DNA of 45,075 bases, taken from a virus. Taxonomy: Duplodnaviria > Heunggongvirae > Uroviricota > Caudoviricetes. Positions 1,243 to 24,158 of the stretch are shown here, one piece after another. The DNA is taken from IMG/VR virus record IMGVR_UViG_3300033121_001869, positions 1 through 45,075 of that record; one strand, given 5' to 3'. The notes below the pieces were generated by a model. That model did no database searches. It saw nothing but the letters and a program-made list of their open reading frames with translations, and was not told the origin of the DNA. The translations under genes and the position numbers were made by a program. Positions within the stretch are counted from its first letter, which is position 1. Each line of letters starts with the position of its first letter.

Positions 1243-2133
1243 TTAAGGTTGAATTATAATATTCACACTATTTTTTTTAAAAATAGTTTTAACACTCAAT
1301 TTTGGATTGATAGCCTTGAGATGAGCTTTAGCCTCTATTATAGATGACAGCACATTTATCAATTCATCATTGACATCTAAATGTGCTTCATCGAAGTTTA
1401 TATGAACACTAGAATATTTTACATAACTCGATTTAGATTTTGTTTGACTAAAAACATTAACACCGTTAATGTTGAATACAATTGATATAGAATTCCCATT
1501 ATCGGAAATATCATAAGAATCACTAATATCCATTAATGTGCTAAAACACTCAATTATATCTTCTTTATCACTTAAAAAATTCTTTCTTTGGGTTTCTATT
1601 TCCTTTTGTATTTTTATTTTATTATCCAATTCTTGTTTCTTTATATCAAGATTTGAGGAACAATTATTTAAATAAGTAACCAAATTTTCTATGTTAGAAT
1701 TTATTATCGATATCAATTGTTCTTTTGATTTAATAATTGTATTGTGTGAAATTTCTAAACTCATAAATGTCTTATATACATCAACAACACCAATATTTGA
1801 TTGATAAAACGATCCAATTAATTGAGGATAAAAATTTTTAATAAAATTAAAATTTATTTTACACCATTGCATTTTAGATGAATTGATATTAAATGAGATA
1901 ATAATAGTGACACCATTAATATTATTATTAATCCTTGTTATTTCCGGAATTTTTTCAAGTGGAAGTATAAACTTTAAAATAATTGAATTATCTTCCTTTT
2001 GAATTTCTGATTTGTAATCTGTAAAATGCGAAATAGATGATTTAATTATCTTAAAAAGTTTATCATAGTTATGCTTTTTAACTAAATTGAATTTATCACA
2101 ATTAATTTCTTCATATTTTTTTAGATGATTCAC
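1243..2133 (-). CDS. Hypothetical protein with N-terminal MNHLKKYEE tag (candidate virion-internal protein)
   Basis: 296 aa ORF, GTG start, shared N-terminal tag, TAATATATA 4 nt upstream. Confidence 0.7.
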   Translation of the reverse strand: MNHLKKYEEINCDKFNLVKKHNYDKLFKIIKSSISHFTDYKSEIQKEDNSIILKFILPLEKIPEITRINNNINGVTIIISFNINSSKMQWCKINFNFIKNFYPQLIGSFYQSNIGVVDVYKTFMSLEISHNTIIKSKEQLISIINSNIENLVTYLNNCSSNLDIKKQELDNKIKIQKEIETQRKNFLSDKEDIIECFSTLMDISDSYDISDNGNSISIVFNINGVNVFSQTKSKSSYVKYSSVHINFDEAHLDVNDELINVLSSIIEAKAHLKAINPKLSVKTIFKKNSVNIIIQP

Positions 2134-2137
2134 TAAG

Positions 2138-2177
2138 TATATATTAATTAAACTTTAGCAATTATCAATAATATAAT
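2138..2177. promoter_or_regulatory. Divergent promoter pair: TAATATATA (minus, 2138-2146) and AAAC-N18-TATAAT (plus, 2150-2177)
   Basis: Both motifs recur at fixed geometry upstream of several other genes in the window. Confidence 0.6.
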
Positions 2178-2195
2178 TGTGATAAATTAAATTAA

Positions 2196-4211
2196 ATGTT
2201 AAGAAATCTTTTACTATTAATAATAATTCTACTCTTCTACAAGTCTTATTCTCAAATCGATACAATACCAATTATTGATTCTACATTTCAAATTGAAAAT
2301 GTTCAAGTTATAGGAATAAGACCAACAAAAAATGAACCTATAACACTAACAACACTGAAAGTAGATTCATTAAATTATGTCCCAGCTTCAGATCCATTTT
2401 TTCTAATTAATCGATACACTCCAAATATATTGTCACAATCAGATAATGGTAGTACTTATGGATATTCTTACATTAAAATAAGAGGTTTGGATCAGACCAG
2501 AATAAACTTCACACTTAATGGAATACCGCTAAATGAAATGGAAGATCAGGGAATATATTTCTCGAATATGCCAAATTTTATCAATAATATTGATCAAATT
2601 CAAGTACAAAGAGGAATTGGGACATCAAAATATGGAACAACATCATTTGCTGGATCTGTAAATATGGAAACCAAATCTCCATTATCAAAAGAATTAAAAT
2701 TTGGACTGGGAGGTGGATCTTATGGTACAATATTTGGGAATATTGGATATTCATCCGGATTGTTAAGAAATAAATTTGCACTATCCTCTAATATTTCATA
2801 CTTAGAATCTAATGGATTTCGATATCACTCCGGAACTGATGGATTAAATTATTTTGGACAATTTGCATATTTCGGTAAGAAAAATATAGTAAAGGTGTAT
2901 GAATTTACTGGGATGTCAAGAAATGGTATGTCTTGGTTAGCACCAAGCGATTCTATTCTAAATTTTGATATTAGAATAAACCTAAACGGAGAAGATGAAA
3001 AAGATAAATTTAATCAAAATTTTGGAGCGATAAATTGGATAAATTATGGAATAGAAAATTTAAAATTTAATTCATCAGTCTATATTAATAATATTAATGG
3101 TAAATATACATCATATTTAGATCCAACACTGCTAGGTAGATTCGGATTGAATTCATATCAGGCTGGAGTGATGTCTAATATAGTTTATGAAAAAAACTCT
3201 ATATCCATAAATAGTGGAATCAATTATAACTATTATCAAAGAAAGCATACATTATCGGATAATTTGTACCCTGATGATTTATTTTATACAAATAAAGGAT
3301 ATAAACAAGATTTTATAACATTTGTAAAATTCAATAAATCATTTAAAGATTTAAATCTGTTCGTTGACTTACAATATAGATATGTCAATTTTAACTATGA
3401 TAAAAAAATGTCACATGGATGGCATTTTATTAATCCAAAAGTTGGATTAAAATACAACAAGAAAGATTGGAATATTTACACTTCAATTGCCATGACAGGA
3501 CGAGAAGTAACTAGAACAGATTTATTAAATGGATATGATAATGTTGATGTTATAAATAAAACAACATTAACTTCTTTTGAAGATACATTTAATGTAAACT
3601 TTAAACCAGAAAGATGTTATGATTTGGAAGTCGGTGGATTTTTTACAAAAAAAGGTTTCACATTCTCCGGTAATGTTTATGTAATGTACTTCAATAATGA
3701 AAGAATATCAACTGGTGATATAAATTATATTGGACTATTACTAAAGTCACCAACTGAAAAGTCTATCAGAACTGGATTAGAAATAGACATGAATTATAAA
3801 TATAAAGGACTTTCAGTCGCAACAAATCTATCAGTATCTAAAAATAAAATATACAAATGGTCAGATAAAAATGGAAATAATTATTTGAATGTATCTCCAT
3901 TTGGTAGTCCAAGATTTACAATGAATAATACGATTGAGTATTCTCATAAATATTTTTATATAAATTTAAATGGTATGTTTGTATCTAAAATGTATTTGGA
4001 TAATACACAAAACGAAAAATTTGTAACACCATCATATTATTTATTAAATTCAAATGTCGGTGTTAAATTTAAATCTCTATGCATTTCAATGATTGTTAAT
4101 AATATCATAAACACTAAATACTATTTGCCCGGTGGTCTATATATGAATAGACCCGCCTTTTATCCTGGAGCTTTAAGAAACTATTTAATCAATGTTCAAG
4201 TTACTTTATGA
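2196..4211 (+). CDS. TonB-dependent outer-membrane receptor (Bacteroidota vitamin-receptor type)
   Basis: Signal peptide; plug motifs IRGLDQTRINFTLNGIPLN and IQVQRGIGTSKYG..SFAGSVN; amphipathic beta-barrel; C-terminal strand RNYLINVQVTL. Confidence 0.92.
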   Translation: MLRNLLLLIIILLFYKSYSQIDTIPIIDSTFQIENVQVIGIRPTKNEPITLTTLKVDSLNYVPASDPFFLINRYTPNILSQSDNGSTYGYSYIKIRGLDQTRINFTLNGIPLNEMEDQGIYFSNMPNFINNIDQIQVQRGIGTSKYGTTSFAGSVNMETKSPLSKELKFGLGGGSYGTIFGNIGYSSGLLRNKFALSSNISYLESNGFRYHSGTDGLNYFGQFAYFGKKNIVKVYEFTGMSRNGMSWLAPSDSILNFDIRINLNGEDEKDKFNQNFGAINWINYGIENLKFNSSVYINNINGKYTSYLDPTLLGRFGLNSYQAGVMSNIVYEKNSISINSGINYNYYQRKHTLSDNLYPDDLFYTNKGYKQDFITFVKFNKSFKDLNLFVDLQYRYVNFNYDKKMSHGWHFINPKVGLKYNKKDWNIYTSIAMTGREVTRTDLLNGYDNVDVINKTTLTSFEDTFNVNFKPERCYDLEVGGFFTKKGFTFSGNVYVMYFNNERISTGDINYIGLLLKSPTEKSIRTGLEIDMNYKYKGLSVATNLSVSKNKIYKWSDKNGNNYLNVSPFGSPRFTMNNTIEYSHKYFYINLNGMFVSKMYLDNTQNEKFVTPSYYLLNSNVGVKFKSLCISMIVNNIINTKYYLPGGLYMNRPAFYPGALRNYLINVQVTL

Positions 4212-4738
4212 TAGAAATAATAGCAGTAATATTCAGTTTAGTTTCTGTTTGGCTAACAGCTATTAGAAATATTTGGTGTTGGATAATTGGCATCATTGGT
4301 ATAATTGCCTATTCATTTATTTTTTATGATAAATGTGATTGGGGTAATTTTGGATTACAATTTATCTTTTTACTACAATCAATCTGGGCATGGATTAATT
4401 GGAATAAAGCTGAAAAAGAAATAACAAAACTACCTAAAGGATATTTCACAAAAATATCATTATCTATTTTATCACTATCAATTCTGATATATCTGATTAG
4501 TTACTCACTTAATGGCAATTTATTATTACTTGATTCCATAACATCATCTATAAGTTTATTCGCAATGTTTTTACTTGGATACAATAAAATAGAAGCTTGG
4601 ATATTATGGATTATTGCAGATATTTTATATATCTTATTCTTTATGTTGAATGGTCTTTACCTTTCATCATTTTTATATTTTATATTTTTATTGTTATCAG
4701 TATATGGATTTTTTAATTGGAAAAATAAAATAATATGA
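4208..4738 (+). CDS. pnuC: PnuC-family vitamin (nicotinamide riboside/thiamine) inner-membrane transporter
   Basis: Highly hydrophobic 176 aa; WCWIIG and IEAWILWIIAD motifs; ATGA overlap with the TonB receptor gene. Confidence 0.88.
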   Translation: MIEIIAVIFSLVSVWLTAIRNIWCWIIGIIGIIAYSFIFYDKCDWGNFGLQFIFLLQSIWAWINWNKAEKEITKLPKGYFTKISLSILSLSILIYLISYSLNGNLLLLDSITSSISLFAMFLLGYNKIEAWILWIIADILYILFFMLNGLYLSSFLYFIFLLLSVYGFFNWKNKII

Positions 4739-4860
4739 AAGAAGAATTACTAGAATTTATAAGATGGTATTGGGCAGAGGTCAATGGAAAGCCCTATGAT
4801 ATCAGAGGAGAAGAATTGATTGAAATTTACTTAAAAGAAAAAAATAAAAACTATGATTGA
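4735..4860 (+). CDS. Small hypothetical protein (41 aa, MKEELLEFIRWYW...)
   Basis: Translated by hand; ATGA overlap with pnuC; fills the gap to the next gene. Confidence 0.55.
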   Translation: MKEELLEFIRWYWAEVNGKPYDIRGEELIEIYLKEKNKNYD

Positions 4861-5191
4861 TAATGGTGTATTAAGAGTTGGTGGAAACTCTATAAAAGTA
4901 TGGATAGGTGAAAAAATCGAAAAATTTGGAACCTTTTTCGCTGAATGGGGCACAAAAATAATAGTAAATAATAAGCCTAAAATTGTTACAAATCCATCCG
5001 CAAAATTATATAATCCATTCACATTGATTGTTAGTTTCACTGTTGATACAAACCAAAAATTTCAGGTTGTTTTACAAGGAGATTATAAAGAAAAATATAA
5101 AGAGTGTGAGGATGGACAGATAAATCTAACCGAAACAGAAATGTTTATGGTTATAAATTCAAGTCGAGGTAAGTGGTTTAAAAAGGAATAA
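4853..5191 (+). CDS. Hypothetical protein
   Basis: 112 aa ORF tightly packed in the operon. Confidence 0.65.
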   Translation: MIDNGVLRVGGNSIKVWIGEKIEKFGTFFAEWGTKIIVNNKPKIVTNPSAKLYNPFTLIVSFTVDTNQKFQVVLQGDYKEKYKECEDGQINLTETEMFMVINSSRGKWFKKE

Positions 5192-5644
5192 ATGATAGTA
5201 TTGTTTAATAAATTTGAGGGAAAATGTCCTTATTACCTAACAGGATTAGCATCTACTGTTAATGCTTTACCAGGAATTGAAGTTCGTCATGCCTTTCATC
5301 ATATTGGTCAAGGACCAACAATACTTTTTATCGTCAATAATACTAATAAAGGTCTTTTTTTTCTAACTAGATGTATTGATCGTAGGTATTTTAGGTGGGG
5401 AAATTCTTGGAATATAACACTATCTGTCGGTGATCAATATATCAATCAAAAACTACCGATAGTCTATGATCTATCAACAATATCGAGTGAGTATGAAAAA
5501 TCAATTGGTGATTTAATTGATAATATCAATTACCACTTTCATCATGAAAATTTCATGAATATGTATGAATTAGATAAAAATGATTTTAAATGTATTGATA
5601 CCATAATTGAAAATAGAGATGATAAAATAAATAGTATTCTATGA
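5192..5644 (+). CDS. Hypothetical protein with C-terminal RDDKINSIL tag
   Basis: 150 aa ORF abutting its neighbours; shared C-terminal motif. Confidence 0.7.
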   Translation: MIVLFNKFEGKCPYYLTGLASTVNALPGIEVRHAFHHIGQGPTILFIVNNTNKGLFFLTRCIDRRYFRWGNSWNITLSVGDQYINQKLPIVYDLSTISSEYEKSIGDLIDNINYHFHHENFMNMYELDKNDFKCIDTIIENRDDKINSIL

Positions 5645-6364: not shown

Positions 6365-7394
6365 GAACTCATTAGTACTCGGAAAATTCTATTGTGTTCA
6401 TTTAGGACATTTATTTTTAATTGACACCGCAATATCCGAGTCAGAACAAGTTAATGTAATAATAACCCATAATAAGTCACAGTTTATTCCAGGTGAATTT
6501 AGATATAATGTTTTAAATTATATCTATAAAGATAATCCAAAAGTCACAATACACTTAGTAAGTGATGATGGATTACCCCAACATGACAATGAGTGCTCAA
6601 CACTAGATGAGTTTTATTCGTATTGGGTTCCGTTGGTGTATAATACGGTATCAAATATTGACGCCGTTTTTACATCTGAAGACTATGGTGATGATTTTGC
6701 CAAATATTTGGGAGTTGAACATAGATTAGTTGATAAAGAAAGAAAGAAATATCCAATTTCTGGGACAAAAGCTAGAACTAACCCAATAGAATACTGGGAT
6801 TTTATGCCAAACGAAATGAAGAAATTCTTTGTTAAAAGAGTTGCATTGATGGGACCAGAATCGGTTGGCAAATCAACATTAACACAGAAATTATCAGAAT
6901 ATTACCAAACCAACTATGTTGAAGAATATGGAAGAACAGTATTTGAAAATAATGGGAATAAAATATCTATTGATGACTTTATCCCAATATCGATTGGAAG
7001 GCAATTAATTGAGGATGAATTGATTGTAGATTCAAATAAGATAATATTTTGTGATACTGAGGATATAACAACGTATCTATTTAGTAAAATGTTTTTTCCG
7101 AATGATTATAATAAAGTTGAGAATTTTTTTACTACTTCTTTCAATAGTAAACCAAAATATGATCTATATATTCTTCTAAAACCAGATTGTGATGGTGTAC
7201 AAGATGGAACAAGACAATTTTTAGATGAAAGGTGGGAACATTACATATCTATCAAAAATGAATTGATAAGTCAAAATTGTCGATTTATTGAAATAGAGGG
7301 TGATTGGGAATTTAGATTTAAAAAATCTATTGAGGTTATTGATAATAATATATTGAATGAATTAATATATACTAAAAAATTAATCAACCAATGA
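6357..7394 (+). CDS. nadR: NadR-type bifunctional NMN adenylyltransferase / ribosylnicotinamide kinase (no HTH repressor domain)
   Basis: GKF..HLGH nucleotidyltransferase motif, FTSEDYG, ISGT; Walker A GPESVGKST, EYGR, FCDT, YDLYILL, DGTR. Confidence 0.92.
   Translation: MYKNSLVLGKFYCVHLGHLFLIDTAISESEQVNVIITHNKSQFIPGEFRYNVLNYIYKDNPKVTIHLVSDDGLPQHDNECSTLDEFYSYWVPLVYNTVSNIDAVFTSEDYGDDFAKYLGVEHRLVDKERKKYPISGTKARTNPIEYWDFMPNEMKKFFVKRVALMGPESVGKSTLTQKLSEYYQTNYVEEYGRTVFENNGNKISIDDFIPISIGRQLIEDELIVDSNKIIFCDTEDITTYLFSKMFFPNDYNKVENFFTTSFNSKPKYDLYILLKPDCDGVQDGTRQFLDERWEHYISIKNELISQNCRFIEIEGDWEFRFKKSIEVIDNNILNELIYTKKLINQ
7363..7371 (+). promoter_or_regulatory. Putative late promoter TAATATATA
   Basis: Recurrent motif 19 nt upstream of the 7391 start. 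Confidence 0.5.
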
Positions 7395-7663
7395 AAAGTA
7401 TTAATGAAAGTCAAGGATCAGATCTATTATTAAATATGTATAAATTTTATTCAAAAAGATATGCAAGTAATCCATCTGAAATTGAAAAGAAGTTCAATGC
7501 CGCAGTTGAGGATCTAATAACAACCGGAGACATTAAAAACGTTGAATATATTGACTTTTGTGTAACTCATGATATTGAACCAAAAATAAAAGAAAAAAAA
7601 CAATCATCATCTTCATCTTCTTCAGATCCTTGCGGACACAGTGTCTCATATCGTGGATGTTAA
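7391..7663 (+). CDS. Small protein with poly-Ser linker and Cys-containing tail (candidate radical-SAM substrate)
   Basis: MKSINES... ending KKQSSSSSSSDPCGHSVSYRGC. Confidence 0.7.
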   Translation: MKSINESQGSDLLLNMYKFYSKRYASNPSEIEKKFNAAVEDLITTGDIKNVEYIDFCVTHDIEPKIKEKKQSSSSSSSDPCGHSVSYRGC

Positions 7664-7677
7664 AAAATATCTAATTA

Positions 7678-8379: not shown

Positions 8380-8383
8380 TAAA

Positions 8384-9280: not shown

Positions 9281-9369
9281 TCATATCCCAGTTAATATAG
9301 GATTATAACCTTAACAATTCTCTAATAATTTAGAATCACTGAAATGATTTAATCTCCACTTTCTTACCG

Positions 9370-9633
9370 TTATATACTTGGTATAAATAAGTGAATCATA
9401 TCTTTCATGAAATTTTCTTCATCGGAGTTATCTTCTTTTCTATTTGTTGATACTGATTTGTAAAATTCTTCTAAATCACTATCTGACATATTGTTTATTT
9501 CATCAAAACATTCAAATACGTTTATATCAAACGGTTTATTGTAATTAGAAAGGATATCAACTACATTGATAATATCATCAGATATTCTTTTTTCTCTACC
9601 AAGTGATTCATTATATTTTTTTAAATGTTTCAT
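9370..9633 (-). CDS. Hypothetical protein, MKHLKKYNES tag
   Basis: Acidic small ORF with shared tag; possible frameshifted 3' end. Confidence 0.7.
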   Translation of the reverse strand: MKHLKKYNESLGREKRISDDIINVVDILSNYNKPFDINVFECFDEINNMSDSDLEEFYKSVSTNRKEDNSDEENFMKDMIHLFIPSI

Positions 9634-9637
9634 TTTA

Positions 9638-9961
9638 TTAGTATGTTTTTATTAAATAGTCACCGTTTTCAATGTGACCATCAAATGCTAATTTATTCAT
9701 TAGCATATAAACTTCCGATCGTGAATATTCTTGTTTTTTAATCCATTTATCAAATTCCAGTCTTTCAAATTCTTCAGAATCAACTCCGATTTCAAATGTT
9801 TCATCATGTCCCATCTCCAAACAAGCTTCAATTTCTGGATTTTTTCCGTATAAATCCTCTATAAAAGATGCTAAATCAGAACAATCAACCGAATATACAA
9901 CCTGCTTGGTAAAAATTGATGGCATTGATTTATTTTCAATAAATAATTTTAAATGTTTCAT
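9638..9961 (-). CDS. Hypothetical protein, MKHLKLFIEN tag
   Basis: Acidic small ORF in tagged cluster. Confidence 0.75.
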   Translation of the reverse strand: MKHLKLFIENKSMPSIFTKQVVYSVDCSDLASFIEDLYGKNPEIEACLEMGHDETFEIGVDSEEFERLEFDKWIKKQEYSRSEVYMLMNKLAFDGHIENGDYLIKTY

Positions 9962-10194
9962 TAGTATCTACTTATTAATTCCATTAATATATTATTAAAT
10001 GTCATATCATAATCCGTACTACCCTCAGCTCCCTCATGTCCATTTTCCTCACACCACTCATAAAATTTAGGTTCCAATTCAGATATCAAATCTTGCATCT
10101 TTTTATATGCCTCAGCATATTCATCACTCCTTTCAAATCCACTTTGTGCGGAATATACTGGAGCTGATTCATTAAATTTCTTAAGATGTTTCAT
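9961..10194 (-). CDS. Hypothetical protein, MKHLKKFNES tag
   Basis: Acidic small ORF in tagged cluster. Confidence 0.75.
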   Translation of the reverse strand: MKHLKKFNESAPVYSAQSGFERSDEYAEAYKKMQDLISELEPKFYEWCEENGHEGAEGSTDYDMTFNNILMELISRY

Positions 10195-10198: not shown

Positions 10199-10582
10199 TT
10201 AATTTATTTTATTCCAAGGCTCAACAGATACCATCTCACATGCGGCATCGTCTTTAACAGCCACAATACAATCACAATTGTGTTTAGCACATTCAATTTC
10301 TGTATTATCATCATCAATATTGCTTTCTGGACATTTAACAGTAATTATCCAATATTCATCACCTTCTTTATTATCTAAAAAGTCTGGATTTACATCATCT
10401 AGTGTACGAACATAATACTCACCCGGTTCTGTCAAATTAACAACGGGGTGTGATGTTAATCTATATAATGTCACTATACCATCTTGAATTTCAAGATCAT
10501 GATGATCATGTACTATTGGTTCATTATCTTGTTCTAAATCCTCATTAATTAAAAAATCTTTGAAATTCTTAACTATTCTCAT
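10199..10582 (-). CDS. Hypothetical protein, MRIVKNFKDFLINE tag
   Basis: First gene of the tagged cluster, downstream of TAATATATA. Confidence 0.75.
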   Translation of the reverse strand: MRIVKNFKDFLINEDLEQDNEPIVHDHHDLEIQDGIVTLYRLTSHPVVNLTEPGEYYVRTLDDVNPDFLDNKEGDEYWIITVKCPESNIDDDNTEIECAKHNCDCIVAVKDDAACEMVSVEPWNKIN

Positions 10583-10600: not shown

Positions 10601-10612
10601 TAATATATATTA
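10601..10612. promoter_or_regulatory. Palindromic TAATATATATTA, putative bidirectional late promoter
   Basis: Contains TAATATATA on both strands between divergent genes 10582(-) and 10629(+). Same palindrome at 13629-13640. Confidence 0.55.
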
Positions 10613-10628: not shown

Positions 10629-11375
10629 ATGTATTCTAAAATATATGATTTTTGTAAAGTAAGAAACGAAGGATCTATATATTATAATGATCCACAAATT
10701 CCAACCAATAGGGTAATATTTCTATTAAAATTATTAAAATCAGAATCTATTGATTATGAATTAGATATATTTCCATATAGTGATACATCAGCATATAATA
10801 TAATTTTAAAAGGAACATCTAATAAAATGGTGGTGGCTCATCATGATATAGTAAATCCAAGAACGGATAATGCAAATGATAATTCAGCATCTGTTATAAA
10901 TGCTATAATGATTAAGAAATTAAGACCAGATATGAATGTGGTTATTCTTGATGCAGAAGAAGTAGGAGGATATGGATCCAAAAGGGTATCTGAGCAGATT
11001 AAGTCGGGTTATTTTGGCAACATTGATTGGGTACTTAACTTAGAATTAACTGGTAAAGGTGGTAAAAACTTTTTTATTGGTAACTACCCAGGTAGATTAC
11101 AAAATCATATAGTTAAACTATTTAATTGTCCAATCGTAGATACACCCTTTAATGATTCTGTGATATTTAGAAAAAATGGAATTGATTCTTGTGTAATTAA
11201 CCCCTTGCCAATTTTAGAAAATGGAAAAAAATCACATATAAAATTTGGTGACAATTTTCTAGATCATTCATTGTTATTCAATTGTCATACAAATAAAGAT
11301 TCAATAGAAACTATTGATACTTCTGATATGAAAGAATTTGTTGAAGATGTTGTTTTAAAAATAATAGATAATTAA
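10629..11375 (+). CDS. M28-family zinc metallopeptidase
   Basis: VAHHD, ANDNSAS, DAEEVG..GS, LNLE, FNDS and CHT..D metal-ligand motifs. Confidence 0.85.
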   Translation: MYSKIYDFCKVRNEGSIYYNDPQIPTNRVIFLLKLLKSESIDYELDIFPYSDTSAYNIILKGTSNKMVVAHHDIVNPRTDNANDNSASVINAIMIKKLRPDMNVVILDAEEVGGYGSKRVSEQIKSGYFGNIDWVLNLELTGKGGKNFFIGNYPGRLQNHIVKLFNCPIVDTPFNDSVIFRKNGIDSCVINPLPILENGKKSHIKFGDNFLDHSLLFNCHTNKDSIETIDTSDMKEFVEDVVLKIIDN

Positions 11376-12541
11376 TGGATATTTCTACCGAATTAGAAAT
11401 AATTGAAAAGAGAAGAAAAGGAGTATCAATTAAGAATATTTGTCAAGAATATAAAATTGATAAGTCCAGACTATATCGAATATTACATAGAAATGGTAGA
11501 GAAAAAATAATACCTAATAAAAAATATAGCGTAAATGATAGTTTTTTTGAAAATATAGATAGTGAGGAAAAAGCATATTGGTTGGGATTTTTCTATGCAG
11601 ACGGATATGTTAGTGATAAAAAGGGAGAAAATTATATTGAACTAGGACTATCATCATCGGATAAAAATCATATTTTACTTTTTGCAAATTGTATAGAATC
11701 TAACTATCCAATAAAAAATAGAAATAGCTCACCGAAATATTTAAAAAAAGATGGTCAAAAGTGCGAATCTACACATTTGAAGATTTATAATTCTAAATTA
11801 GTAAATGATCTAATAAAATTAGGATGTATGAATAAAAAAAGTTGGAAAATAACATATCCCAATTTCATTAAATCGGAAATGGAAAGACATTTTATAAGAG
11901 GATATTTTGATGGAGATGGATCTGTAAGAAAAAGAGGACCAAATCAATATGAAGTGAGTATTGCAGGAAATTATGATTTTATAAATGGCTTAAAAAGGTC
12001 AATAGAGGAAAAAGGTATAAAAAAATCTTATATTACAGTAAGGAAGAAGGATAGATTGGCGTCTTTGGTCATATCAAATAATAAAGACTGTACATCTTTT
12101 TATAAATTGATATATGAAAATATAAATTCAAAATGTTTTTTAAAAAGAAAAAAATCAATACTTGATAACATAACCAATATAGAAAAAAGAAAAGATTATA
12201 AGTCATATAAATTAACAGATAACAATGGTGAAATTTATACAGTAAATGATGGTCTTGAGAAATTCTGTAAAAAAATGATGATAGATTATTTAAAAATAAA
12301 AAAGTCAATAGATAAAAATAAGAGTGTTAATGGTTGGAAAATAGAGAGAATTATTGAATCAACAAGTACTATGAGGTATATAAAACTATTTGAGGAGTTT
12401 ATAGATGTTGTTAAACTAGATAAAAAGGTATCTAGTAAAGACATTGAGAAATCTTTAAATAGAGAAATAAAAACAAAGGATCCTATTGTTTTTAAAGACA
12501 CTAAAGGAGTATATCAAATAAAAAATTGGAAAACATACTAA
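11375..12541 (+). CDS. LAGLIDADG homing endonuclease, read through in frame into a tagged small protein
   Basis: KAYWLGFFYADG and HFIRGYFDGDG; last 56 aa begin MRYIKLFEEF at ATG 12371. Confidence 0.88.
   Translation: MDISTELEIIEKRRKGVSIKNICQEYKIDKSRLYRILHRNGREKIIPNKKYSVNDSFFENIDSEEKAYWLGFFYADGYVSDKKGENYIELGLSSSDKNHILLFANCIESNYPIKNRNSSPKYLKKDGQKCESTHLKIYNSKLVNDLIKLGCMNKKSWKITYPNFIKSEMERHFIRGYFDGDGSVRKRGPNQYEVSIAGNYDFINGLKRSIEEKGIKKSYITVRKKDRLASLVISNNKDCTSFYKLIYENINSKCFLKRKKSILDNITNIEKRKDYKSYKLTDNNGEIYTVNDGLEKFCKKMMIDYLKIKKSIDKNKSVNGWKIERIIESTSTMRYIKLFEEFIDVVKLDKKVSSKDIEKSLNREIKTKDPIVFKDTKGVYQIKNWKTY
12371..12541 (+). CDS. Small protein with MRYIKLFEE tag, embedded as the C-terminus of the LAGLIDADG ORF
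   Basis: Internal ATG followed by the tag seen at true N-termini elsewhere. Confidence 0.55.
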   Translation: MRYIKLFEEFIDVVKLDKKVSSKDIEKSLNREIKTKDPIVFKDTKGVYQIKNWKTY

Positions 12542-14601: not shown

Positions 14602-16719
14602 ATGAATATTAATACCGAATACCTAAAAAATTACAACTTCAAAAATGCCGTTGAAGATGAGGATGAAGATGAAGATCAATTCTCAAAAAGTAATAAAAAA
14701 CCAGCAAACTCAAATTCAAAAACACCAATATTAGATTCCTTCAGTAGGGATTTGACAAAAATGGCAGTTGATGGAAAATTGGATATAATCGTTGGTAGAA
14801 ATAAAGAAATTGAAAGAGTTTCTCAAATTCTTTCAAGAAGAAAGAAAAATAACCCAATATTAATCGGTGAACCAGGTGTTGGTAAATCAGCGATTGCTGA
14901 AGGATTGGCAATAAAAATCGTTCAGAGAAAATGCTCTAGGATTCTTTTCAATAAAAGAATTGTGATTCTTGATCTAGCATCAATGGTTGCTGGTACAAAG
15001 TACAGAGGACAATTTGAAGAAAGGATTAAAGCACTGATGGGTGAATTAGAAAAAAACCCTGATGTTATACTATTCATTGATGAAATACACACAATGATAG
15101 GTGCTGGTGGTGCATCTGGATCATTGGACGCATCAAATATGTTTAAACCCGCTTTAGCAAGGGGTGAAATCCAAATTATTGGAGCCACAACTATTGATGA
15201 ATATAGAAAACACATCGAGAAGGATGGTGCTTTGGAAAGAAGATTTCAAAAAGTAATGGTAGAACCAGCAACAGCTGAGGAATCATTACAAATATTAATG
15301 AATATAAAAGATAAATATGAAAATCATCACCATGTTAAATATACAGATGAGGCTATTAGGGCATGTGTTGATCTAACAAATAGATACATGACAGATAGAT
15401 TTCTACCTGATAAAGCAATTGATGCATTAGATGAAGCAGGAGCTCGTGTACATATATCTAATATTGTTGTCCCAAAAGACATAACTAATATTGAAAAAAA
15501 GATATCAGAAATAAAAGATAAGAAATCAGAGGTTGTTAGATCTCAAAGATATGAAGAGGCTGCAAAATTAAGGGATGTTGAAAAACAACTTCAAACTGAA
15601 CTTGAATCCGCCCGTAAAAAATGGGAAGAAGATTCAAAAGATAATAGACAAACAGTTACCGAAGAAAATGTAGCAGAAGTTGTGTCTATGATTACAGGAG
15701 TTCCATTAACTAAGGTATCTCAAAATGAGAATTCTAAATTGTCCAAAATGTATGAGTCTATGTCAGGCAAAGTAATTGGACAAGAAGAGGCTATTCAAAA
15801 AGTAACAAAAGCAATTCAAAGAGGAAGAGTAGGTCTAAAAGATCCAAATCGTCCTATCGGATCATTCATATTTTTAGGACCAACTGGTGTTGGTAAAACC
15901 GAATTAGCTAAACAATTGGCTAAATATCTATTTGATTCCGAGGACTCACTTATAAGAATTGATATGTCTGAGTTTATGGAAAAGTTTTCTATCTCAAGGC
16001 TTATCGGAGCACCTCCGGGATATATCGGACATGATGAGGGAGGACAACTAACCGAGAAAGTTAGAAGAAAACCATATTCTGTTATCTTATTAGATGAGAT
16101 TGAAAAAGCACACCCAGAAGTATTTAACTTACTATTGCAAGTTTTAGATGATGGACAATTAACTGATTCTTTGGGTAGAAAAGTTAGTTTTAAAAACTCC
16201 ATTATTATCATGACATCTAATACAGGAAGTAGGAGACTAAAAGACTTCGGAACAGGAGTTGGTTTCAATACAAAAAATAGAGAAAATCTAAAATCGAGTA
16301 TTGAAAAAGATATAGTTGAAAAAGAGTTGAAAAAGTCCTTTGCTCCCGAATTCCTAAATAGGATAGATGATGTTATTACATTTAATTCTCTTGAGAAAGA
16401 AGATATTGAAAAAATTGTATTAATTGAAATCAATAAACTAAAATCTAGAGTTACTGATTTAGAGTTTGACTTAGATATTACACAGGAAGCTATTGATAAT
16501 ATTGTGAAAAATGGATTTGATCCAGCTTATGGAGCTCGACCATTAAAAAGGGCTATACAGAAATATGTTGAAGATGTTGTAACAGAGGAAATAATAGCAA
16601 GTAATCCAAGTAAAGGATCAAAAATAACCCTTGATTATAATTCAGAAGAAGATAAAATGATTGTTAAAGTTTCAAAAAAGAAAAGGAAGAAAGATGGAGA
16701 AGAAAGTGGAGAGAATTAA
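14602..16719 (+). CDS. clpC: ClpC-type AAA+ unfoldase lacking the Clp N-domain
   Basis: Walker A GEPGVGKS and GPTGVGKT; FIDEIH, LLDEIEKAHP; UVR-like middle domain (QRYEEAAKLRD); GVGF ClpP-docking loop; GARPL. Confidence 0.93.
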   Translation: MNINTEYLKNYNFKNAVEDEDEDEDQFSKSNKKPANSNSKTPILDSFSRDLTKMAVDGKLDIIVGRNKEIERVSQILSRRKKNNPILIGEPGVGKSAIAEGLAIKIVQRKCSRILFNKRIVILDLASMVAGTKYRGQFEERIKALMGELEKNPDVILFIDEIHTMIGAGGASGSLDASNMFKPALARGEIQIIGATTIDEYRKHIEKDGALERRFQKVMVEPATAEESLQILMNIKDKYENHHHVKYTDEAIRACVDLTNRYMTDRFLPDKAIDALDEAGARVHISNIVVPKDITNIEKKISEIKDKKSEVVRSQRYEEAAKLRDVEKQLQTELESARKKWEEDSKDNRQTVTEENVAEVVSMITGVPLTKVSQNENSKLSKMYESMSGKVIGQEEAIQKVTKAIQRGRVGLKDPNRPIGSFIFLGPTGVGKTELAKQLAKYLFDSEDSLIRIDMSEFMEKFSISRLIGAPPGYIGHDEGGQLTEKVRRKPYSVILLDEIEKAHPEVFNLLLQVLDDGQLTDSLGRKVSFKNSIIIMTSNTGSRRLKDFGTGVGFNTKNRENLKSSIEKDIVEKELKKSFAPEFLNRIDDVITFNSLEKEDIEKIVLIEINKLKSRVTDLEFDLDITQEAIDNIVKNGFDPAYGARPLKRAIQKYVEDVVTEEIIASNPSKGSKITLDYNSEEDKMIVKVSKKKRKKDGEESGEN

Positions 16720-16915: not shown

Positions 16916-16917
16916 AA

Positions 16918-19201: not shown

Positions 19202-20330
19202 ATATACAATAAATATCTCCAGTGTAGATAACATCTATGAACATCTATTCAATTGTCGTAATCTTTTTATACCAAATCTAGATTCATATGTGAATATTAA
19301 GGAATATTCACAAAAACTATTTGATAAATCTTATAGATTTGAAGCATTTGATAATGACAAACTAGTTGGATTAATATGTTTATATCCAAACAATTTTATA
19401 ACAAATGTTAGTGTATTGATAGAATATCAAGGTAAAGGAGTAGTAAATCAATTAATGGAAAAATGTATTAAGTATGCAAATACTAAAATAACATTAGATG
19501 TAAATATAGACAACAATCGAGCGATAAATTTTTATAAAAAGTATGGATTTATAATAACAAATAAAAAAGAAAATAATTATACGATGGAACTTGAAATTAA
19601 AAGAAATTATAATAGTGAATTTAAAGATACAAAAGATCATAAATATGCTTACAACTTTGATTTTGATGTTATGCATCCATATATGATTAAATCATTTGAA
19701 CCATTTTTCAAAGGAGATGATGTTTTAGAATTAGGTAGTTTTAAAGGAGATTTCACTAAAAGATTAATACCTTATTTTAAAGATATAACCTGTGTAGAAG
19801 CCTCAGATGAGGCTATAAAAATAGCAAAATCAAATTTAGAGGATCATAGTATTAACTATTATAATTTCCTATTTGAAGACGCCACTCTACCAAAGAAATA
19901 TAATAATATAATATTAACACACGTACTAGAACACATTGATGATCCTGTATCACTTTTAAGAAAAATAAAAGATGAATGGTTATCAGATAATGGTAAATTA
20001 TTTATTGTTTGTCCAAATGCCAATGCGCCATCTAGGCAAATTGCAGTTAAAATGGGACTTATTTCACATAACTCTGCAATAACAGATGCTGAAAAAGAAC
20101 ATGGTCATAGAATAACTTACTCACTAGATACTTTAGAAAGAGATGTTATGAAATCAGGGTTAAAAACAATACATAGAAGTGGAATTTTCTTTAAAGCTCT
20201 TGCCAATTTTCAATGGGATAAATTAATAAATTCTGACATAATTACTCCAGAATATTTAGATGGGTGTTACAAACTTGGACAACATTATCCAGATCTTTGT
20301 TCAAGTATAATGATTATTTGCCAAAAATGA
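19194..20330 (+). CDS. GNAT acetyltransferase-class I SAM methyltransferase fusion
   Basis: YQGKGV..N.RAINFYKKYGF followed by VLELGSFKG..HVLEH. Confidence 0.85.
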   Translation: MIKYTINISSVDNIYEHLFNCRNLFIPNLDSYVNIKEYSQKLFDKSYRFEAFDNDKLVGLICLYPNNFITNVSVLIEYQGKGVVNQLMEKCIKYANTKITLDVNIDNNRAINFYKKYGFIITNKKENNYTMELEIKRNYNSEFKDTKDHKYAYNFDFDVMHPYMIKSFEPFFKGDDVLELGSFKGDFTKRLIPYFKDITCVEASDEAIKIAKSNLEDHSINYYNFLFEDATLPKKYNNIILTHVLEHIDDPVSLLRKIKDEWLSDNGKLFIVCPNANAPSRQIAVKMGLISHNSAITDAEKEHGHRITYSLDTLERDVMKSGLKTIHRSGIFFKALANFQWDKLINSDIITPEYLDGCYKLGQHYPDLCSSIMIICQK

Positions 20331-21328
20331 TGTTAAACTATTACATATCGGATAGGCAGTTTTCTAATCCAAGAGGTCCTTTCTCTATGATTAACGTTAG
20401 TCGTGAATCGTGTGGTAAAAGTGGAAATCTTAAAATTAAAGAATTTATAGAAACAAACAACAATTTTGCACTTTGTAGAATTGGACTAGGTGAATTAAGA
20501 TGGATTGATTGGTGGATAAAAGGAAGTAATGATTATTTCCCTGTCAATAAAAAGTGCGGTGGGTTATATTATAACTGTGAAGGTCATAATAATACTAATG
20601 GTGTATATACTCCAAATTTGTTAAGTAGATTACAACTAAATGGTATTTATGGTGATAGATGTGAATTATTTATAAATGAATATATTAAAGGTATCTCATC
20701 TGCAGATCTTCAAGTATTTTGGTATCAATATAATAAAAATACCAAAGCATATGATCCAATGTTATTTGAAGAACAATTAAATATATTTGAAAAATATTCA
20801 CCAAACTCAATAAAGATTGATATTGAAAGTATAGTTCCATATTTCCATACAAATTTCTGGTCATCCGCTCTAAAGGGTAAGAAAGTTTTAGTTGTATATC
20901 CATTTGAGAAAACTATTAATCAACAATTTCAACATAAAGATAAAATTTGGACAGATGAACACTTCGGAAAATTACCCGATTTCGAATTGAAAACATATAA
21001 ACCTGTTTGGGTGTTAGGTAAAAATAAACCACACAATTCTTGGTATGAATCCTTTTGTTTTATGAGAGATGAGATATCAAAGATAGATTTTGATATAGCA
21101 CTATTAGGATGTTCACATTATGGATTGCCATTAGTCGCTCATATAAAAAATGATATGAAGAAATCAGCTATCTATATGGGAGGAGAAACTCAAATTCTAT
21201 TTGGAATCAAAGGACGTAGATGGGATTCTTGGCCAGATGCTACCAAATTTTATAATGATTGTTGGACAAGATCAATTGATGAAATTCCTGATGGTGCAAA
21301 TATAATGGATGGTGGAAGTTATTGGTAA
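20327..21328 (+). CDS. Polysaccharide-locus conserved protein (possible GT-D-like fold)
   Basis: RIGLGE, ALKGKKVLVVYPF, DFDIALLGC..YGLPL, GG..QILFGIKG.RW; ATGA overlap start. Confidence 0.7.
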   Translation: MMLNYYISDRQFSNPRGPFSMINVSRESCGKSGNLKIKEFIETNNNFALCRIGLGELRWIDWWIKGSNDYFPVNKKCGGLYYNCEGHNNTNGVYTPNLLSRLQLNGIYGDRCELFINEYIKGISSADLQVFWYQYNKNTKAYDPMLFEEQLNIFEKYSPNSIKIDIESIVPYFHTNFWSSALKGKKVLVVYPFEKTINQQFQHKDKIWTDEHFGKLPDFELKTYKPVWVLGKNKPHNSWYESFCFMRDEISKIDFDIALLGCSHYGLPLVAHIKNDMKKSAIYMGGETQILFGIKGRRWDSWPDATKFYNDCWTRSIDEIPDGANIMDGGSYW

Positions 21329-21804
21329 TATTCGTAATTATTACTAACTAAATTATTTAATTCAAAATCACCTCTACGAATTGCTTCAATAACTTCGCTA
21401 TTTGAAATAAAGAAATCAATTTTCTTCATGCTAGATGCCCTACTACCACGCGCATATTTTATATCTATCGATCGAGCAATACAGCAATTTTTTCTATTTA
21501 AATAGCTATTAATTCTGTTTATCAATAATTTTAGATTACTGACAATATTTTCAAAATTTGTCTCATCATAAATTTGAAAATATATGTTAATGGAACTATA
21601 CGACTTTTCACCAGCGAAAAAAGAGCTTTCAATTATAAAATAGGTATTTGAAATATTATCTGAGCTACCACCAAAAGGCTCATAATGATATATATCCACA
21701 TCATCAGCAAATTCCTGAAACATATCCATAATATCTTCCTTTTCTTCCTTTGATAAGGTTTTAATTATTTCTTGGTTTTTGCTAAAGGATTCTAAATATC
21801 TCAT
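21319..21804 (-). CDS. Hypothetical protein, MRYLESF tag variant
   Basis: Likely start ATG 21804 just after AAATATATA. Confidence 0.65.
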   Translation of the reverse strand: MRYLESFSKNQEIIKTLSKEEKEDIMDMFQEFADDVDIYHYEPFGGSSDNISNTYFIIESSFFAGEKSYSSINIYFQIYDETNFENIVSNLKLLINRINSYLNRKNCCIARSIDIKYARGSRASSMKKIDFFISNSEVIEAIRRGDFELNNLVSNNYEYYQ

Positions 21805-21852
21805 TTTATTATATATTTGAAAACAATTCATTCTATTTTAGATAGAATTAGT

Positions 21853-22818
21853 ATGATTATAATAACAGGAGCAGCTGGTTTCATCGGTAGTTATATAGCT
21901 GGATATTTTAACAAAAAAGGATTTGATAATTTAGTCTTAGTTGATGATTTTTCAAATGAATCAAAACAAATGAATTTCATAAATAAAAAATGTCAATGTT
22001 TCATTGATAGAGAAATATTATTTGATTTTATAGATTCAAACCACAAAGAAATTGATTTTATATTTCATCTTGGAGCCAGAACTGACACATCAGAATTTAA
22101 TATTGATATATTAAATAAATTAAATACTGACTATACTAAAAAGTTATGGTCACTTTGTACAAAATATCAAATACCAATAATCTATGCTTCATCTGCCGCA
22201 ACATATGGTGATGGGTCTCTTGGATTCAATGATGATGATAAGATCACCTATCAGTTAAATCCACTAAATCCTTATGGAAATTCTAAACATCTATTCGACA
22301 AATGGGCACTAAAACATAAATATGAACCTCCTTACTGGGTGGGATTAAAATTCTTTAATGTTTTTGGACCCAATGAATATCATAAAAGTAGGATGGCATC
22401 TGTTCCATTTCATATATTTAATACTTTAAAATCTGGAAATAAAGTTAAAATATTTAAAAGTCATAAGTCAGAATATAAAGATGGGAGTCAAATGAGAGAT
22501 TTTATATATGTCAAAGACATTGCAAAAGTTTTTGAGTTCTTATTCGAAAATCGAATTAAAAATGGAATTTATAACTTAGGATCCGGAAAAGCTAGAACAT
22601 TTATTGATTTAGCTAAAGCTTGTCACAATTCATTTAATGTGGATTTTGATATAGAATTTATAGATATACCAAAAGATATAAGAGATTCATATCAGTATTA
22701 TACACAAGCAAATATGGATAAACTAATCAACCAAGGATATAAAATTCCCTTCACATCAATTGAAGATGGAATTGAAGAATATTATAAAGAATATTTGTTA
22801 GATGGAAAAAGATTTTAA
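21853..22818 (+). CDS. hldD: ADP-L-glycero-D-manno-heptose 6-epimerase
   Basis: MIIITGAAGFIGS, YASSAATYG, PLNPYGNSK, FFNVFGPNEYHK.RMAS, YQYYTQA. Confidence 0.93.
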   Translation: MIIITGAAGFIGSYIAGYFNKKGFDNLVLVDDFSNESKQMNFINKKCQCFIDREILFDFIDSNHKEIDFIFHLGARTDTSEFNIDILNKLNTDYTKKLWSLCTKYQIPIIYASSAATYGDGSLGFNDDDKITYQLNPLNPYGNSKHLFDKWALKHKYEPPYWVGLKFFNVFGPNEYHKSRMASVPFHIFNTLKSGNKVKIFKSHKSEYKDGSQMRDFIYVKDIAKVFEFLFENRIKNGIYNLGSGKARTFIDLAKACHNSFNVDFDIEFIDIPKDIRDSYQYYTQANMDKLINQGYKIPFTSIEDGIEEYYKEYLLDGKRF

Positions 22819-23188
22819 ATCTATAATGGAAGACATGCATTATCTATCAAATAGGTATATTCTTGTCTTAGGAACATTCGATATAAGAAAGAATCAGCTT
22901 AATAGATTTTTTTCTGAAAATATTGATTTTTATATAAAAGCTGGAAATGGAAATGAAGACTTAATTTTAGAAGCCATTAAAGAATATGAGTATGATGTAG
23001 ATAGGGAAGGATTTTATGAATTTAAAATGTTAATGAGTTATGATGGTGGTCAATATGATGAATATGGAAGGTGTGAATGCAGACCTTACATGGAAATTAT
23101 GTGTATTGGAATGGAGTTTATACAATCTTTCGAATCAAGAGAAAGAGATGTAAAAATAGATTCTTTATTAGACTTATTTGAATTGTGA
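22802..23188 (+). CDS. Hypothetical protein with RERDVKIDSLL tag
   Basis: 128 aa ORF; shared C-terminal motif. Confidence 0.65.
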   Translation: MEKDFKSIMEDMHYLSNRYILVLGTFDIRKNQLNRFFSENIDFYIKAGNGNEDLILEAIKEYEYDVDREGFYEFKMLMSYDGGQYDEYGRCECRPYMEIMCIGMEFIQSFESRERDVKIDSLLDLFEL

Positions 23189-23431
23189 ATTTAACCAATC
23201 ATTAACATGCTCTAAATTCTCTTTAGATACTGATACATGATCATTTGCCCAATCATGTTGTTTAGTTAACATCTCGTCAATCTTATCTTTATCCATTGAT
23301 AAAATATTCTGAGCCATTTTAACAATGTTTTCTAAGTTGGAGAAAAACATATAATTATCAACATTAGATTGCTGATCATTGGTCGAATTTTCATCGCCCT
23401 CAAAATTTTCAAATACTTTTATATGCTTCAT
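23174..23431 (-). CDS. Hypothetical protein, MKHIKVFENFE tag
   Basis: Tagged small ORF (NYMFFSNL..HDWA.DH). Confidence 0.75.
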   Translation of the reverse strand: MKHIKVFENFEGDENSTNDQQSNVDNYMFFSNLENIVKMAQNILSMDKDKIDEMLTKQHDWANDHVSVSKENLEHVNDWLNSQFK

Positions 23432-23432
23432 A

Positions 23433-23768
23433 TTATCTTCTTATTCTTTTAGATTCATCCAGTACTTGTTCTACTTCTTCTTCATCTTCCTCACCCATTA
23501 ACTTAGATTTTAGTGATTTTATCTCATCTAAGTGTTCTTTCATAGCACTAAGTATTTCTTTTTCATCTTCACTTAAATCATAAGGATCTTCTTCATCATC
23601 GAATTTAACATCATCAAATTCAATTAGAACATCAGATAGGTGCGCAATAGCATCAACCAACTCAGCAAATTTATCAACTTCAGTTTCGCTTTCTTTTTCA
23701 TCTTGTGTATGTTTTGATGATTTGAATTCTTCATCCTCAAAAATTCTAAAGCTCTTTATATTTTTCAT
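23433..23768 (-). CDS. Acidic hypothetical protein, MKNIKSFRIFE tag
   Basis: Tag; TAATATATA at 23786-23794. Confidence 0.75.
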   Translation of the reverse strand: MKNIKSFRIFEDEEFKSSKHTQDEKESETEVDKFAELVDAIAHLSDVLIEFDDVKFDDEEDPYDLSEDEKEILSAMKEHLDEIKSLKSKLMGEEDEEEVEQVLDESKRIRR

Positions 23769-23798
23769 AGTTTGATGTTTTCTTTTATATATTATTTA

Positions 23799-24158
23799 CT
23801 AATTATTACTTTTTTCGGTGAAATAAACACAAACATCCATTTGTCTTCCGCTATAACTAGAAGTTCTAATAACTCTATTAGTATCATAACCTGATGATTG
23901 TAAAAATGATTCAACTCTCTCAACAATATCTTTAATAAGATCAAAATCAAATTTATATCTGTTTACTGATCCGGGAATGATTCCTGAAGAAATCCAAACA
24001 TAGGGTTTATTCTCTATCCACCCACCGGTGTGATACCGATAATAAATATCTTTTAAATCAATTAAAATATCTTTAATCCCATTTTCGAGATACAACCTTT
24101 CAGTCTGTTCATCTTTAGACATTTTTGTCCAATAAGCAAAAGCCTCTATAAATCTCAT
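23799..24158 (-). CDS. Hypothetical protein (MRFIEAF)
   Basis: TAATATATA at 24167-24175. Confidence 0.65.
   Translation of the reverse strand: MRFIEAFAYWTKMSKDEQTERLYLENGIKDILIDLKDIYYRYHTGGWIENKPYVWISSGIIPGSVNRYKFDFDLIKDIVERVESFLQSSGYDTNRVIRTSSYSGRQMDVCVYFTEKSNN

Follow-up and report, generated by a model that had tools for sequence, protein, structure and literature searches.

Introduction

The capsid targeting sequence (CTS) of bacteriophage T4 is textbook knowledge, as is its use on the varied internal proteins of T-even phages. We describe here a short N-terminal peptide (hereafter referred to as the tag) that resembles this sequence and is carried by a large set of proteins of an uncultivated tailed virus (Caudoviricetes), a stretch of which (IMG/VR record IMGVR_UViG_3300033121_001869, positions 1 to 45,075; hereafter referred to as the window) was analysed together with the remainder of the same contig and with its relatives. 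A first-pass annotation of the window, made without database searches, had noted the tag on about ten proteins and proposed that it directs them to the capsid.

The T4 CTS, MKTYQEFIAE, is cut once, beside it (PMC8442874). It is present on IPII and IPIII, with related propeptides on IPI, Alt and gp24, and is removed by gp21 (Mullaney and Black 1996, as reviewed in PMC9026906, PMC5694885 and PMC8442874). Suppressor mutagenesis in T4 has attributed targeting to residues 4 and 7 (Tyr4 and Phe7), and processing to residues 8 and 10 (PMC9026906). In phiKZ-like phages, propeptides are cut at A/S/G-x-E by a T4-related prohead protease (PMC5694885, PMC10052503). A search of the full-text literature for tags of this kind in jumbo, huge or mega phages retrieved no description.

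The window constitutes the first 45,075 bases of a virus contig of 182,437 bases with a G+C content of 27%. The nearest relatives by protein similarity are two uncultured megaphages, LR745206 (634 kb) and LR756502 (642 kb), previously described from freshwater and the subsurface (PMC9723777). More remote at the protein level are LR756501 (735 kb), the Lak phages and two cultivated phages, Tenacibaculum phage PTm1 and Sphingomonas phage PAU, both of which have a large structural protein in common with this phage. The contig was treated as part of a much larger genome, because its relatives are 634–642 kb long, a protein 91% identical to one of its own is located on a separate 444-kb contig, and profile matching of its proteins found no capsid, portal or head-protease genes on the 182 kb; the completeness of 79% estimated by CheckV was rejected on the same grounds. 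A crude open reading frame (ORF) call of the whole contig yielded 255 ORFs, with a coverage of 94%.

Results

A conserved peptide at the N-terminus

The tag is 9–10 residues long and follows the pattern M-[KR]-[YH]-[LI]-K-x-[FY]-(N)-E-S. The consensus by position is M1, K/R2, Y/H3, L/I4, K5, any residue at 6, F/Y7, E/N8, E/S9 and F/L/Y10, followed by an acidic stretch. A fixed test pattern ([KR][YHWNIF][LIV][KRES]x[FY], starting at residue 2) was found in 26 of the 255 ORFs, for an expectation of 0.10 from internal positions. Enrichment over shuffled N-termini, a check that had been named beforehand, was clear: shuffling residues 2–20 gave a mean of 0.10 matches and a maximum of 2 in 1000 shuffles. 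After correction of the start codons, or with a looser pattern, 37–38 of the 255 ORFs were tagged, and these genes are spread along the whole contig, beyond the window. A position matrix trained solely on the tags of LR745206, applied to the contig with a threshold of 12 bits, retrieved 18 of 255 N-termini versus 9 of 53,845 internal positions; seven of these nine begin with Met, and most correspond to mis-called starts. The almost exclusive location of the matches at N-termini therefore indicates that the motif requires a free N-terminus.

The nucleotides beneath the tag are far from uniform. Leu is encoded by TTA, CTA, CTT or TTG, Ile by ATA, ATT or ATC, Arg by AGA, AGG, CGT or CGA, and Ser by five different codons. 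In the 127 tags of the contig and LR745206, K, I, F, E, N and R were encoded as in the rest of the genome (p 0.24–0.98), with a slight deviation for L, S and Y. The substitutions tolerated within the tag are conservative in the protein and often several base changes apart (Y/H/W, L/I/V and F/Y). Ordinary codon usage and the free exchange of synonyms therefore indicate that conservation acts on the peptide, not on the DNA.

Tagged genes in the window

The eleven N-termini quoted in the first-pass annotation were all recovered where it had placed them, and ten were retained as members. The eleventh, MKSINES, has no aromatic residue at position 7 and was not counted. The tag at 12371 is present, but at an in-frame internal Met of a longer ORF, rather than at a separate called start. 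The tagged genes and the promoter-like motifs associated with them are as follows:

1243..2133 (−): tagged gene, 296 aa, GTG start, (M)NHLKKYEE; the LR745206 homologues likewise carry the tag
2138..2146 (−): promoter-like motif TAATATATA, 4 nt before the start of 1243–2133, leaving almost no leader
9370..9633 (−): tagged gene, 87 aa, MKHLKKYNES, body pI 4.2, last of a four-gene chain
9638..9961 (−): tagged gene, 107 aa, MKHLKLFIEN, body pI 4.4
9961..10194 (−): tagged gene, 77 aa, MKHLKKFNES, body pI 4.2
10199..10582 (−): tagged gene, 127 aa, MRIVKNFKDFLINE, ending in L-I-N-E, first of the chain
10604..10612 (−): promoter-like motif TAATATATA, 21 nt before the start at 10582, heading the chain 10582–9370
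12371..12541 (+): tag MRYIKLFEEF, in-frame internal Met, residue 333 of the 388-aa ORF 11375–12541
21319..21804 (−): looser tagged gene, 161 aa, MRYLESFSKN; promoter-like motif at 21810–21818, 5 nt upstream
23174..23431 (−): tagged gene, 85 aa, MKHIKVFENFE, body pI 4.5, second in its chain, after 23433–23768
23433..23768 (−): tagged gene, 111 aa, MKNIKSFRIFE; promoter-like motif at 23786–23794, 17 nt upstream
23799..24158 (−): looser tagged gene, 119 aa, MRFIEAFAYW, second motif IKDILIDLKD
24167..24175 (−): promoter-like motif, 8 nt upstream of tagged gene 23799–24158
7391..7663 (+): non-member, MKSINES; only the I-N-E-S ending and a promoter-like motif (7363–7371) in common with the tagged genes

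The homologue of 10199–10582 in LR745206 has the N-terminus MRLKRFNKFKINES. A longer version of the gene at 21319–21804, extending to 21831, was rejected as an ORF-calling artefact, because the motif 5 nt upstream of 21804 marks the right start. In the ORF 11375–12541(+), the endonuclease domain occupies residues 8–268 and the tag lies downstream of this domain; the segment 12371–12541 may be a small tagged gene that has become joined to a mobile nuclease gene, or translation may start internally.

Two further tags at in-frame Met codons were observed elsewhere on the contig, one at residue 400 of a 462-aa amidotransferase protein (97227–98615(−)) and the other at residue 235 of a 448-aa protein (90672–92018(+)), the C-terminal half of which is a separate tagged gene in LR745206. 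Tags at internal Met codons appear to reflect either the fusion of tagged modules or internal start sites.

The bodies behind the tag

BLAST similarity past residue 15 connected a single pair among 38 tagged proteins, and BLAST placed the 127 tagged proteins of the contig and LR745206 in 115 groups. On the contig, Pfam domains were recognized for DUF7919, DUF7448, class-I glutamine amidotransferase (GATase), GNAT, LRR and LOR; in LR745206, the tagged proteins matched M15 peptidase, NUDIX and DUF6576, the remaining 86 of 89 having no match. The earlier description of the bodies as unrelated is consistent with these distinct domains and with the single BLAST pair, but about one fifth of the tagged proteins, which are of similar sizes, have a second short motif in common (approximately D-I-F-x-E-L-x-D-x-G-F, followed by a strand, 15–25 residues downstream of the tag). 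These proteins may constitute one fast-diverging family.

Two families with tagged and untagged homologues illustrate the separation of tag and body. Most of the 120 DUF7448 homologues listed are 117–140 aa long, start a few residues before the conserved D-L-I-G-K-T and have no tag, whereas the 13 nearest the phage protein have an extension of about 30 residues that opens with the tag, one of them having MIKKYNNFINES instead. The AlphaFold model of the phage DUF7448 protein (mean pLDDT 85.9) is confident except for residues 1–8 (pLDDT <50) and one loop. An Rnl1-type RNA ligase (RNA_lig_T4_1 and T4_Rnl1_C; contig 74295–75557(−), equivalent to L002:10298–11557(−)) begins with the T4-like tag MRLFKYKDFIKES, and the Rnl1-type ligase of LR745206 with MKLFKYIEFINEN. 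The ligase orthologue of LR756501 has no tag, its residue 2 aligning with residue 16 of the tagged ligase. These alignments indicate that the tag is a module placed on unrelated bodies.

Searches with individual bodies were less informative. A homologue search with the tagged protein 48764–49180 returned one near-identical protein only, from which no alignment or fold could be built; a tblastn search with one tagged protein against cultivated phages gave no significant match besides LR745206 itself; and an ESM Atlas look-up of one tagged protein led only to unnamed viral clusters, with structural neighbours at a TM of about 0.5 and no consistent function.

A second class of tag and likeness to the T4 CTS

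In sequence, the two invariant hydrophobic positions of the tag coincide with the T4 targeting positions: residue 4 is Leu (21), Ile (15) or Val (2) and residue 7 is Phe (26) or Tyr (12) in all 38 tags. An unbiased survey of N-termini revealed that LR756501, which is devoid of the first tag, favours M-I-K-K-F-x-x-F. This second type (hereafter referred to as class B, the first being class A) has the form M-I-K-K-[FY]-x-x-[FY]-[IL]-x-E, and the same general pattern fits the T4 CTS. With the search pattern ^M.{1,4}[FYW]..[FYW][ILVFM].E, 37 matches were obtained in LR756501 (1.6 expected), 22 in LR745206 (1.7 expected) and five on the contig (0.4 expected). Examples from these matches are MIKNYKNFIAES and MIKTFDEFINES. 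Orthologues swap between the two classes (MRHLKTYESY versus MLKKYSEFIKY, and MKYIRTYESY versus MKVIKFSDYLKES). Because the T4 CTS fits the class-B pattern and orthologues switch classes, we read classes A and B as likely variants of one signal.

As a control, the class-B pattern was applied to 274 ORFs of T4 and gave four matches: ipII, ipIII, gp61.1 and one mis-called start. The gp61.1 gene (NC_000866 18966–19130(−)) lies beside the primase gene and encodes a hypothetical protein of 54 aa, the N-terminus of which, MKTFKEFIKED, fits the CTS pattern in the same way as those of ipII and ipIII.

Cleavage-like context and the head genes of relatives

A Glu residue is present at positions 8–20 in all 127 tags, and at position 8, 9 or 11 in 109 of them; for the contig alone, 29 of 38 tags have Glu at 8 or 9. 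Hydrophobic-x-Glu was found in 83% of the tags, versus 36% of untagged N-termini and 30% of internal windows, and the ending [ILF]-N-E in 32% of the tags versus 4% of untagged N-termini. The commonest Glu triplets are FNE, LFE, YNE and IFE, and there are also forms with KFE or TFE, which have no hydrophobic residue three before Glu. In 87 of the 127 tags, S, N, A or G comes directly after Glu.

The relatives encode head proteins of the T4 type. A gp23-family capsid protein was identified in LR745206 (88.7 bits) and in LR756501 (82.9 bits). The best solved relative of the LR745206 capsid protein is T4 gp23, and the propeptides of the two can be aligned (KKWSPVLE versus T4 NKWKPLLE); that of LR745206 also includes ...S-I-N-E. 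Directly upstream of the capsid gene, LR745206 198546–200669(+) encodes a protein of 707 aa, residues 2–253 of which match the head maturation protease phrog_207 (E 2.6e-30), with a portal gene (phrog_213) further upstream. Peptidase_S77 scored 20–24 bits on the head protease of the relatives, below the Pfam cut-off, and T4 gp21 was not retrieved when the protease region was searched against PDB sequences, so the assignment rests on phrog_207 and the sub-threshold S77 match. The N-terminus of the LR745206 protease, MKPVLIIEN, resembles the LIE-9 site of T4 gp21 (PMC9026906). The approximately 450 residues that follow the protease domain could be a scaffold, and the combined protease-scaffold protein could be the reader of the tags.

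A promoter-like motif in common with head genes

Of all words upstream of ORFs, the octamer AATATATA shows the strongest enrichment, 23-fold on the contig and 22-fold in LR745206. The motif [TA]AATATATA occurs in two spacing classes, 4–6 nt or 17–32 nt before the start codon, and the first of these would yield transcripts with almost no leader. It is found within 45 nt of the start in 20 of 37 tagged genes (54%) versus 34 of 218 untagged genes (16%; odds ratio 6.4, p 1.5e-6), and the same test in LR745206 gave an odds ratio of 5.0 (p 3e-11). In 14 of the 20 motif-bearing tagged genes, the motif ends 4–5 nt before the start, and five tagged genes behind the motif have GTG as their start codon. 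When co-directional genes with gaps of less than 80 nt were joined into chains, 32 of 35 tagged genes (91%) versus 84 of 220 untagged genes belonged to a chain headed by the motif, 15 of the 35 lying inside chains without a motif of their own. In the window, the position downstream of TAATATATA attributed to all members except 12371 was confirmed, directly for 2133, 10582, 21804, 23768 and 24158, and via a co-directional chain for 10194, 9961, 9633 and 23431.

The same octamer precedes the portal and protease genes, and a variant, TTATATATA, the capsid gene. It is also found ahead of many very large structural-looking genes and, on the contig, ahead of a tail-fibre-like gene and of the genes for proteins of 2312 and 1057 aa.

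The same DNA is also present in wastewater and river metagenomes, and three wastewater "metatranscriptomic" runs contain the complete window. The contigs of these runs span both strands and intergenic DNA evenly, which looks like DNA carry-over; they were therefore rejected as evidence of expression and are silent on transcripts and 5' ends.

Distribution and turnover

A strict DNA pattern for the tag gave 17 matches on the contig, 58 in LR745206 and none in LR756501, with 0–1 for a reversed control pattern. A narrower tag pattern was found in at least more than 119 stretches of a viral contig collection. Among the matches listed, five large contigs have 18–67 copies of the tag each (controls, 0–1); one of these five is a complete-looking genome of 482 kb with a gp23-family capsid gene (147.8 bits). 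Other huge-phage contigs have small tagged genes in tandem arrays, at a spacing of 330–450 nt.

Tagged genes are less conserved than the remainder. A homologue in LR745206 was found for nine of 37 tagged genes (24%) versus 108 of 218 untagged genes (50%), and 10% of tagged versus 21% of untagged genes are conserved between LR745206 and LR756501 (p 0.004).

Two differences from the window were observed in a related strain from a wastewater DNA run, each on one contig with a depth of about 5-fold. At 9605–9705, a 99-nt in-frame deletion removes the tag of 9370–9633 and fuses this gene to the tagged gene 9638–9961; at 21330–21849, there is a joint of 518 nt and the tagged gene 21319–21804 is missing.

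A C-terminal tag and other features

A different peptide, R-[DE]-x-[KR]-[ILV]-x-x-[ILVM]-[LGIV], ends 10 proteins of the contig and 79 of LR745206 (0.04 and 0.5 expected), and none in LR756501. It was present on none of the 42 N-terminally tagged proteins of the contig and none of the 112 of LR745206, for about nine expected in the latter. The two tags are mutually exclusive and therefore mark separate sets of proteins. C-terminally tagged genes are located as follows:

5192–5644 and 22802–23188 (+): in the window
52619–52810, 99652–100193, 110983–113034, 130735–130959 and 161263–161913: in the rest of the contig

The window also encodes a Clp-type ATPase of 705 aa with two AAA+ domains (14602–16719(+)), 77% identical to proteins of LR745206 and LR756502. 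DnaK-like (68262–70136) and DnaJ-like (60284–61324) proteins, called from their N-terminal sequences only, are encoded further along the contig, which also carries 25 tRNA genes outside the window.

Discussion

The reading that we prefer, with moderate confidence, is that the tag acts as a lineage-specific prohead-loading and clipping signal of the T4 type, used on a very large scale. On this reading, the signal would have drifted to MKYLKxF(N)ES in this sub-lineage. The analogy with T4 capsid targeting drawn in the first-pass annotation has been strengthened by residues 4 and 7, the hydrophobic-x-Glu context, the match of class B to the CTS, the head genes of the relatives and the promoter-like motif in common with them. 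The tagged genes would be transcribed from the promoter class of the portal, head protease and capsid genes. The free N-terminal peptide, amphipathic with hydrophobic residues at 4, 7 and 10, would then dock on the scaffolding core, for which the long C-terminal region of the protease-scaffold protein is the probable candidate, and the capsid shell would close round this core. The T4-type head protease would cut after the Glu of hydrophobic-x-Glu, at position 8, 9 or 11 and ahead of Ser, Asn, Ala or Gly, and the body would be retained in the head, from which it may exit with the DNA at infection. We infer this route, from tag to docking, cleavage, head retention and delivery with the DNA, by analogy.

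Several observations weigh against a loading signal. The tagged bodies are often acidic, as had been noted for the window (net charge per 100 aa of −5.2, versus −0.8 for untagged proteins; body pI of 4.1–5.4 in eight of the ten window members), whereas the T4 internal proteins IPI–III are highly basic, small and DNA-associated. The cargo would amount to 42 of 255 ORFs on the contig and 112 of 970 in LR745206 (11–16%). To our knowledge, such a number of genes is far beyond any known packaged set; SPN3US, for comparison, has about 50 head proteins. The commonest form of the tag, MKYLKKFES, has Lys or a variable residue three before Glu, rather than the Leu or Ile of the T4 site. The contig itself has no head module, the protease and scaffold being known from relatives only, and a loose tag pattern gave one match in cultivated PTm1 and none in PAU. 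The promoter-like motif is inferred to be a late promoter from the genes that it precedes, and these also include several homing endonucleases and a tRNA synthetase gene. Finally, the class-B pattern also matches gp61.1 of T4, for the packaging of which we know of no report.

The tag might instead be an address or docking peptide for a partner outside the prohead: a chaperone or unfoldase (Clp-type ATPase, DnaK or DnaJ), a degradation system limiting late accessory proteins, or a host hub protein. A short, free, flexible and modular tag suits any reader of linear motifs; a Clp-type ATPase is encoded in the window (14602–16719), and K-Y-L-K-K-F, being basic and hydrophobic, is the kind of segment that Hsp70-type chaperones bind. 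The exclusive C-terminal tag implies more than one address system in the same genomes, and the number and acidity of the tagged proteins fit packaging beside DNA poorly. Such a partner would nevertheless leave unexplained the T4 likeness at residues 4, 7 and Glu, the presence alongside it of class-B tags, whose pattern the T4 CTS also fits, the exchange between the two classes, and the link to the promoter-like motif of the head genes, and LR756501 has class-B tags but no C-terminal tag; we consider this explanation unlikely.

A legacy of descent and recombination, in which a fast-diverging multigene family retains a conserved 5' end, often with its promoter, as a recombination handle that has been copied onto other genes, would account for the second motif and similar lengths of about one fifth of the tagged proteins, for the tandem arrays of other huge-phage contigs, for tags at the in-frame joints of fused modules and for the deletion joining two neighbouring tagged genes in the related strain. 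Half of the tags follow the promoter-like motif by 4–5 nt, and promoter and tag could thus move as a cassette. However, the tag is found on distinct folds (DUF7448, DUF7919, GNAT, GATase, NUDIX, M15 peptidase and Rnl1 ligase), and it persists across phages with only part of their genes in common and across the viral contig stretches described above. The peptide is kept while codons drift and bodies diverge beyond recognition, which points to purifying selection on the peptide itself. Recombination probably explains the spread of the tag, but not why it was retained, and as a full account we find descent quite improbable. A feature of translation or transcription, such as an A/U-rich initial coding region for near-leaderless mRNAs in a non-Shine-Dalgarno host, would be in keeping with possibly leaderless transcripts of the 14 tagged genes with the shortest motif spacing, and with the general preference for Lys at residue 2 in this genome. 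It is very hard to reconcile with synonymous codons that follow genome-wide usage, with conservative amino-acid changes requiring several base changes, with the 15 tagged genes lying in chains without their own motif, with the many untagged genes that have the same 4-nt spacing (34 in LR745206) and with the five tagged genes that start with GTG, and we regard it as highly improbable.

If the tag is a head-loading signal, it would provide a sequence rule for predicting the particle-borne, first-acting proteins of uncultivated giant phages, and a T4 mechanism known for a handful of proteins would have been scaled up to at least a tenth of a genome. Many small orphan genes of megaphages would acquire a role, as candidate counter-defence and takeover factors, and short natural tags would become available for putting foreign proteins into large capsids. 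It is plausible that a tagged enzyme of the tRNA-repair type, such as the Rnl1-type ligase, is a pre-loaded counter-defence factor. More tentatively, and with some doubt, the megaphages of this clade might load more than 100 rapidly evolving proteins (5–16% of their genes) by means of a T4-derived address peptide and deliver them with the DNA, the C-terminal tag sending a second, non-overlapping set elsewhere. The cargo would then include the Rnl1-type RNA ligase, a NUDIX hydrolase, an acetyltransferase and a cell-wall peptidase, and the set of injected proteins could be read straight from the genome sequence of the phage.

Comparison with known systems

The tag resembles the T4 CTS in its length of about 10 residues, its free N-terminus and its occurrence on otherwise unrelated, poorly conserved proteins. 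Lys2 and the hydrophobic or aromatic residues at 4 and 7 are common to both, and most tags then have a hydrophobic-x-Glu, often followed by a small residue, that is like the T4 site. In the megaphage relatives, the capsid protein is of the gp23 type and its propeptide T4-like, and a head maturation protease is encoded as well. The two differ in consensus (MKYLKxF(N)ES here, MKTYQEFIAE in T4) and in the position of Glu, which lies one or two positions earlier here, the residue three before it often being neither Leu nor Ile. They also differ in scale, with 40 to more than 100 tagged genes per genome (5–16% of ORFs) versus three or four pattern matches in T4 (1–1.5%), and in the presence of enzymes among the tagged proteins (Rnl1-type ligase, GNAT, NUDIX, M15 peptidase and amidotransferase). 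The variable internal-protein genes of T-even phages (PMC3012670; PMC9026906) likewise combine a conserved short N-terminal signal with diverse bodies that turn over rapidly, and here, too, conservation between relatives is lower for tagged genes than for the others; T-even phages, however, are described in the literature as having a few basic proteins each, whereas tagged genes here form dozens of dispersed clusters and arrays across genomes of 180–640 kb.

The phiKZ-like giants (SPN3US, phiKZ and 201phi2-1; PMC5694885, PMC10052503) pack many proteins into the head, with propeptides thought to be prohead-targeting and cleavage after Glu, features that are predicted here from genes. Their propeptides are 20 to more than 100 residues long, protein-specific and without a common sequence, unlike the single short peptide described here. 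In encapsulins, cargo-loading peptides are also short linear tags, sufficient to bring unrelated cargo into an HK97-fold shell, but they sit at the C-terminus, bind directly to the shell protein, remain attached and are used by one or a few cargo proteins.

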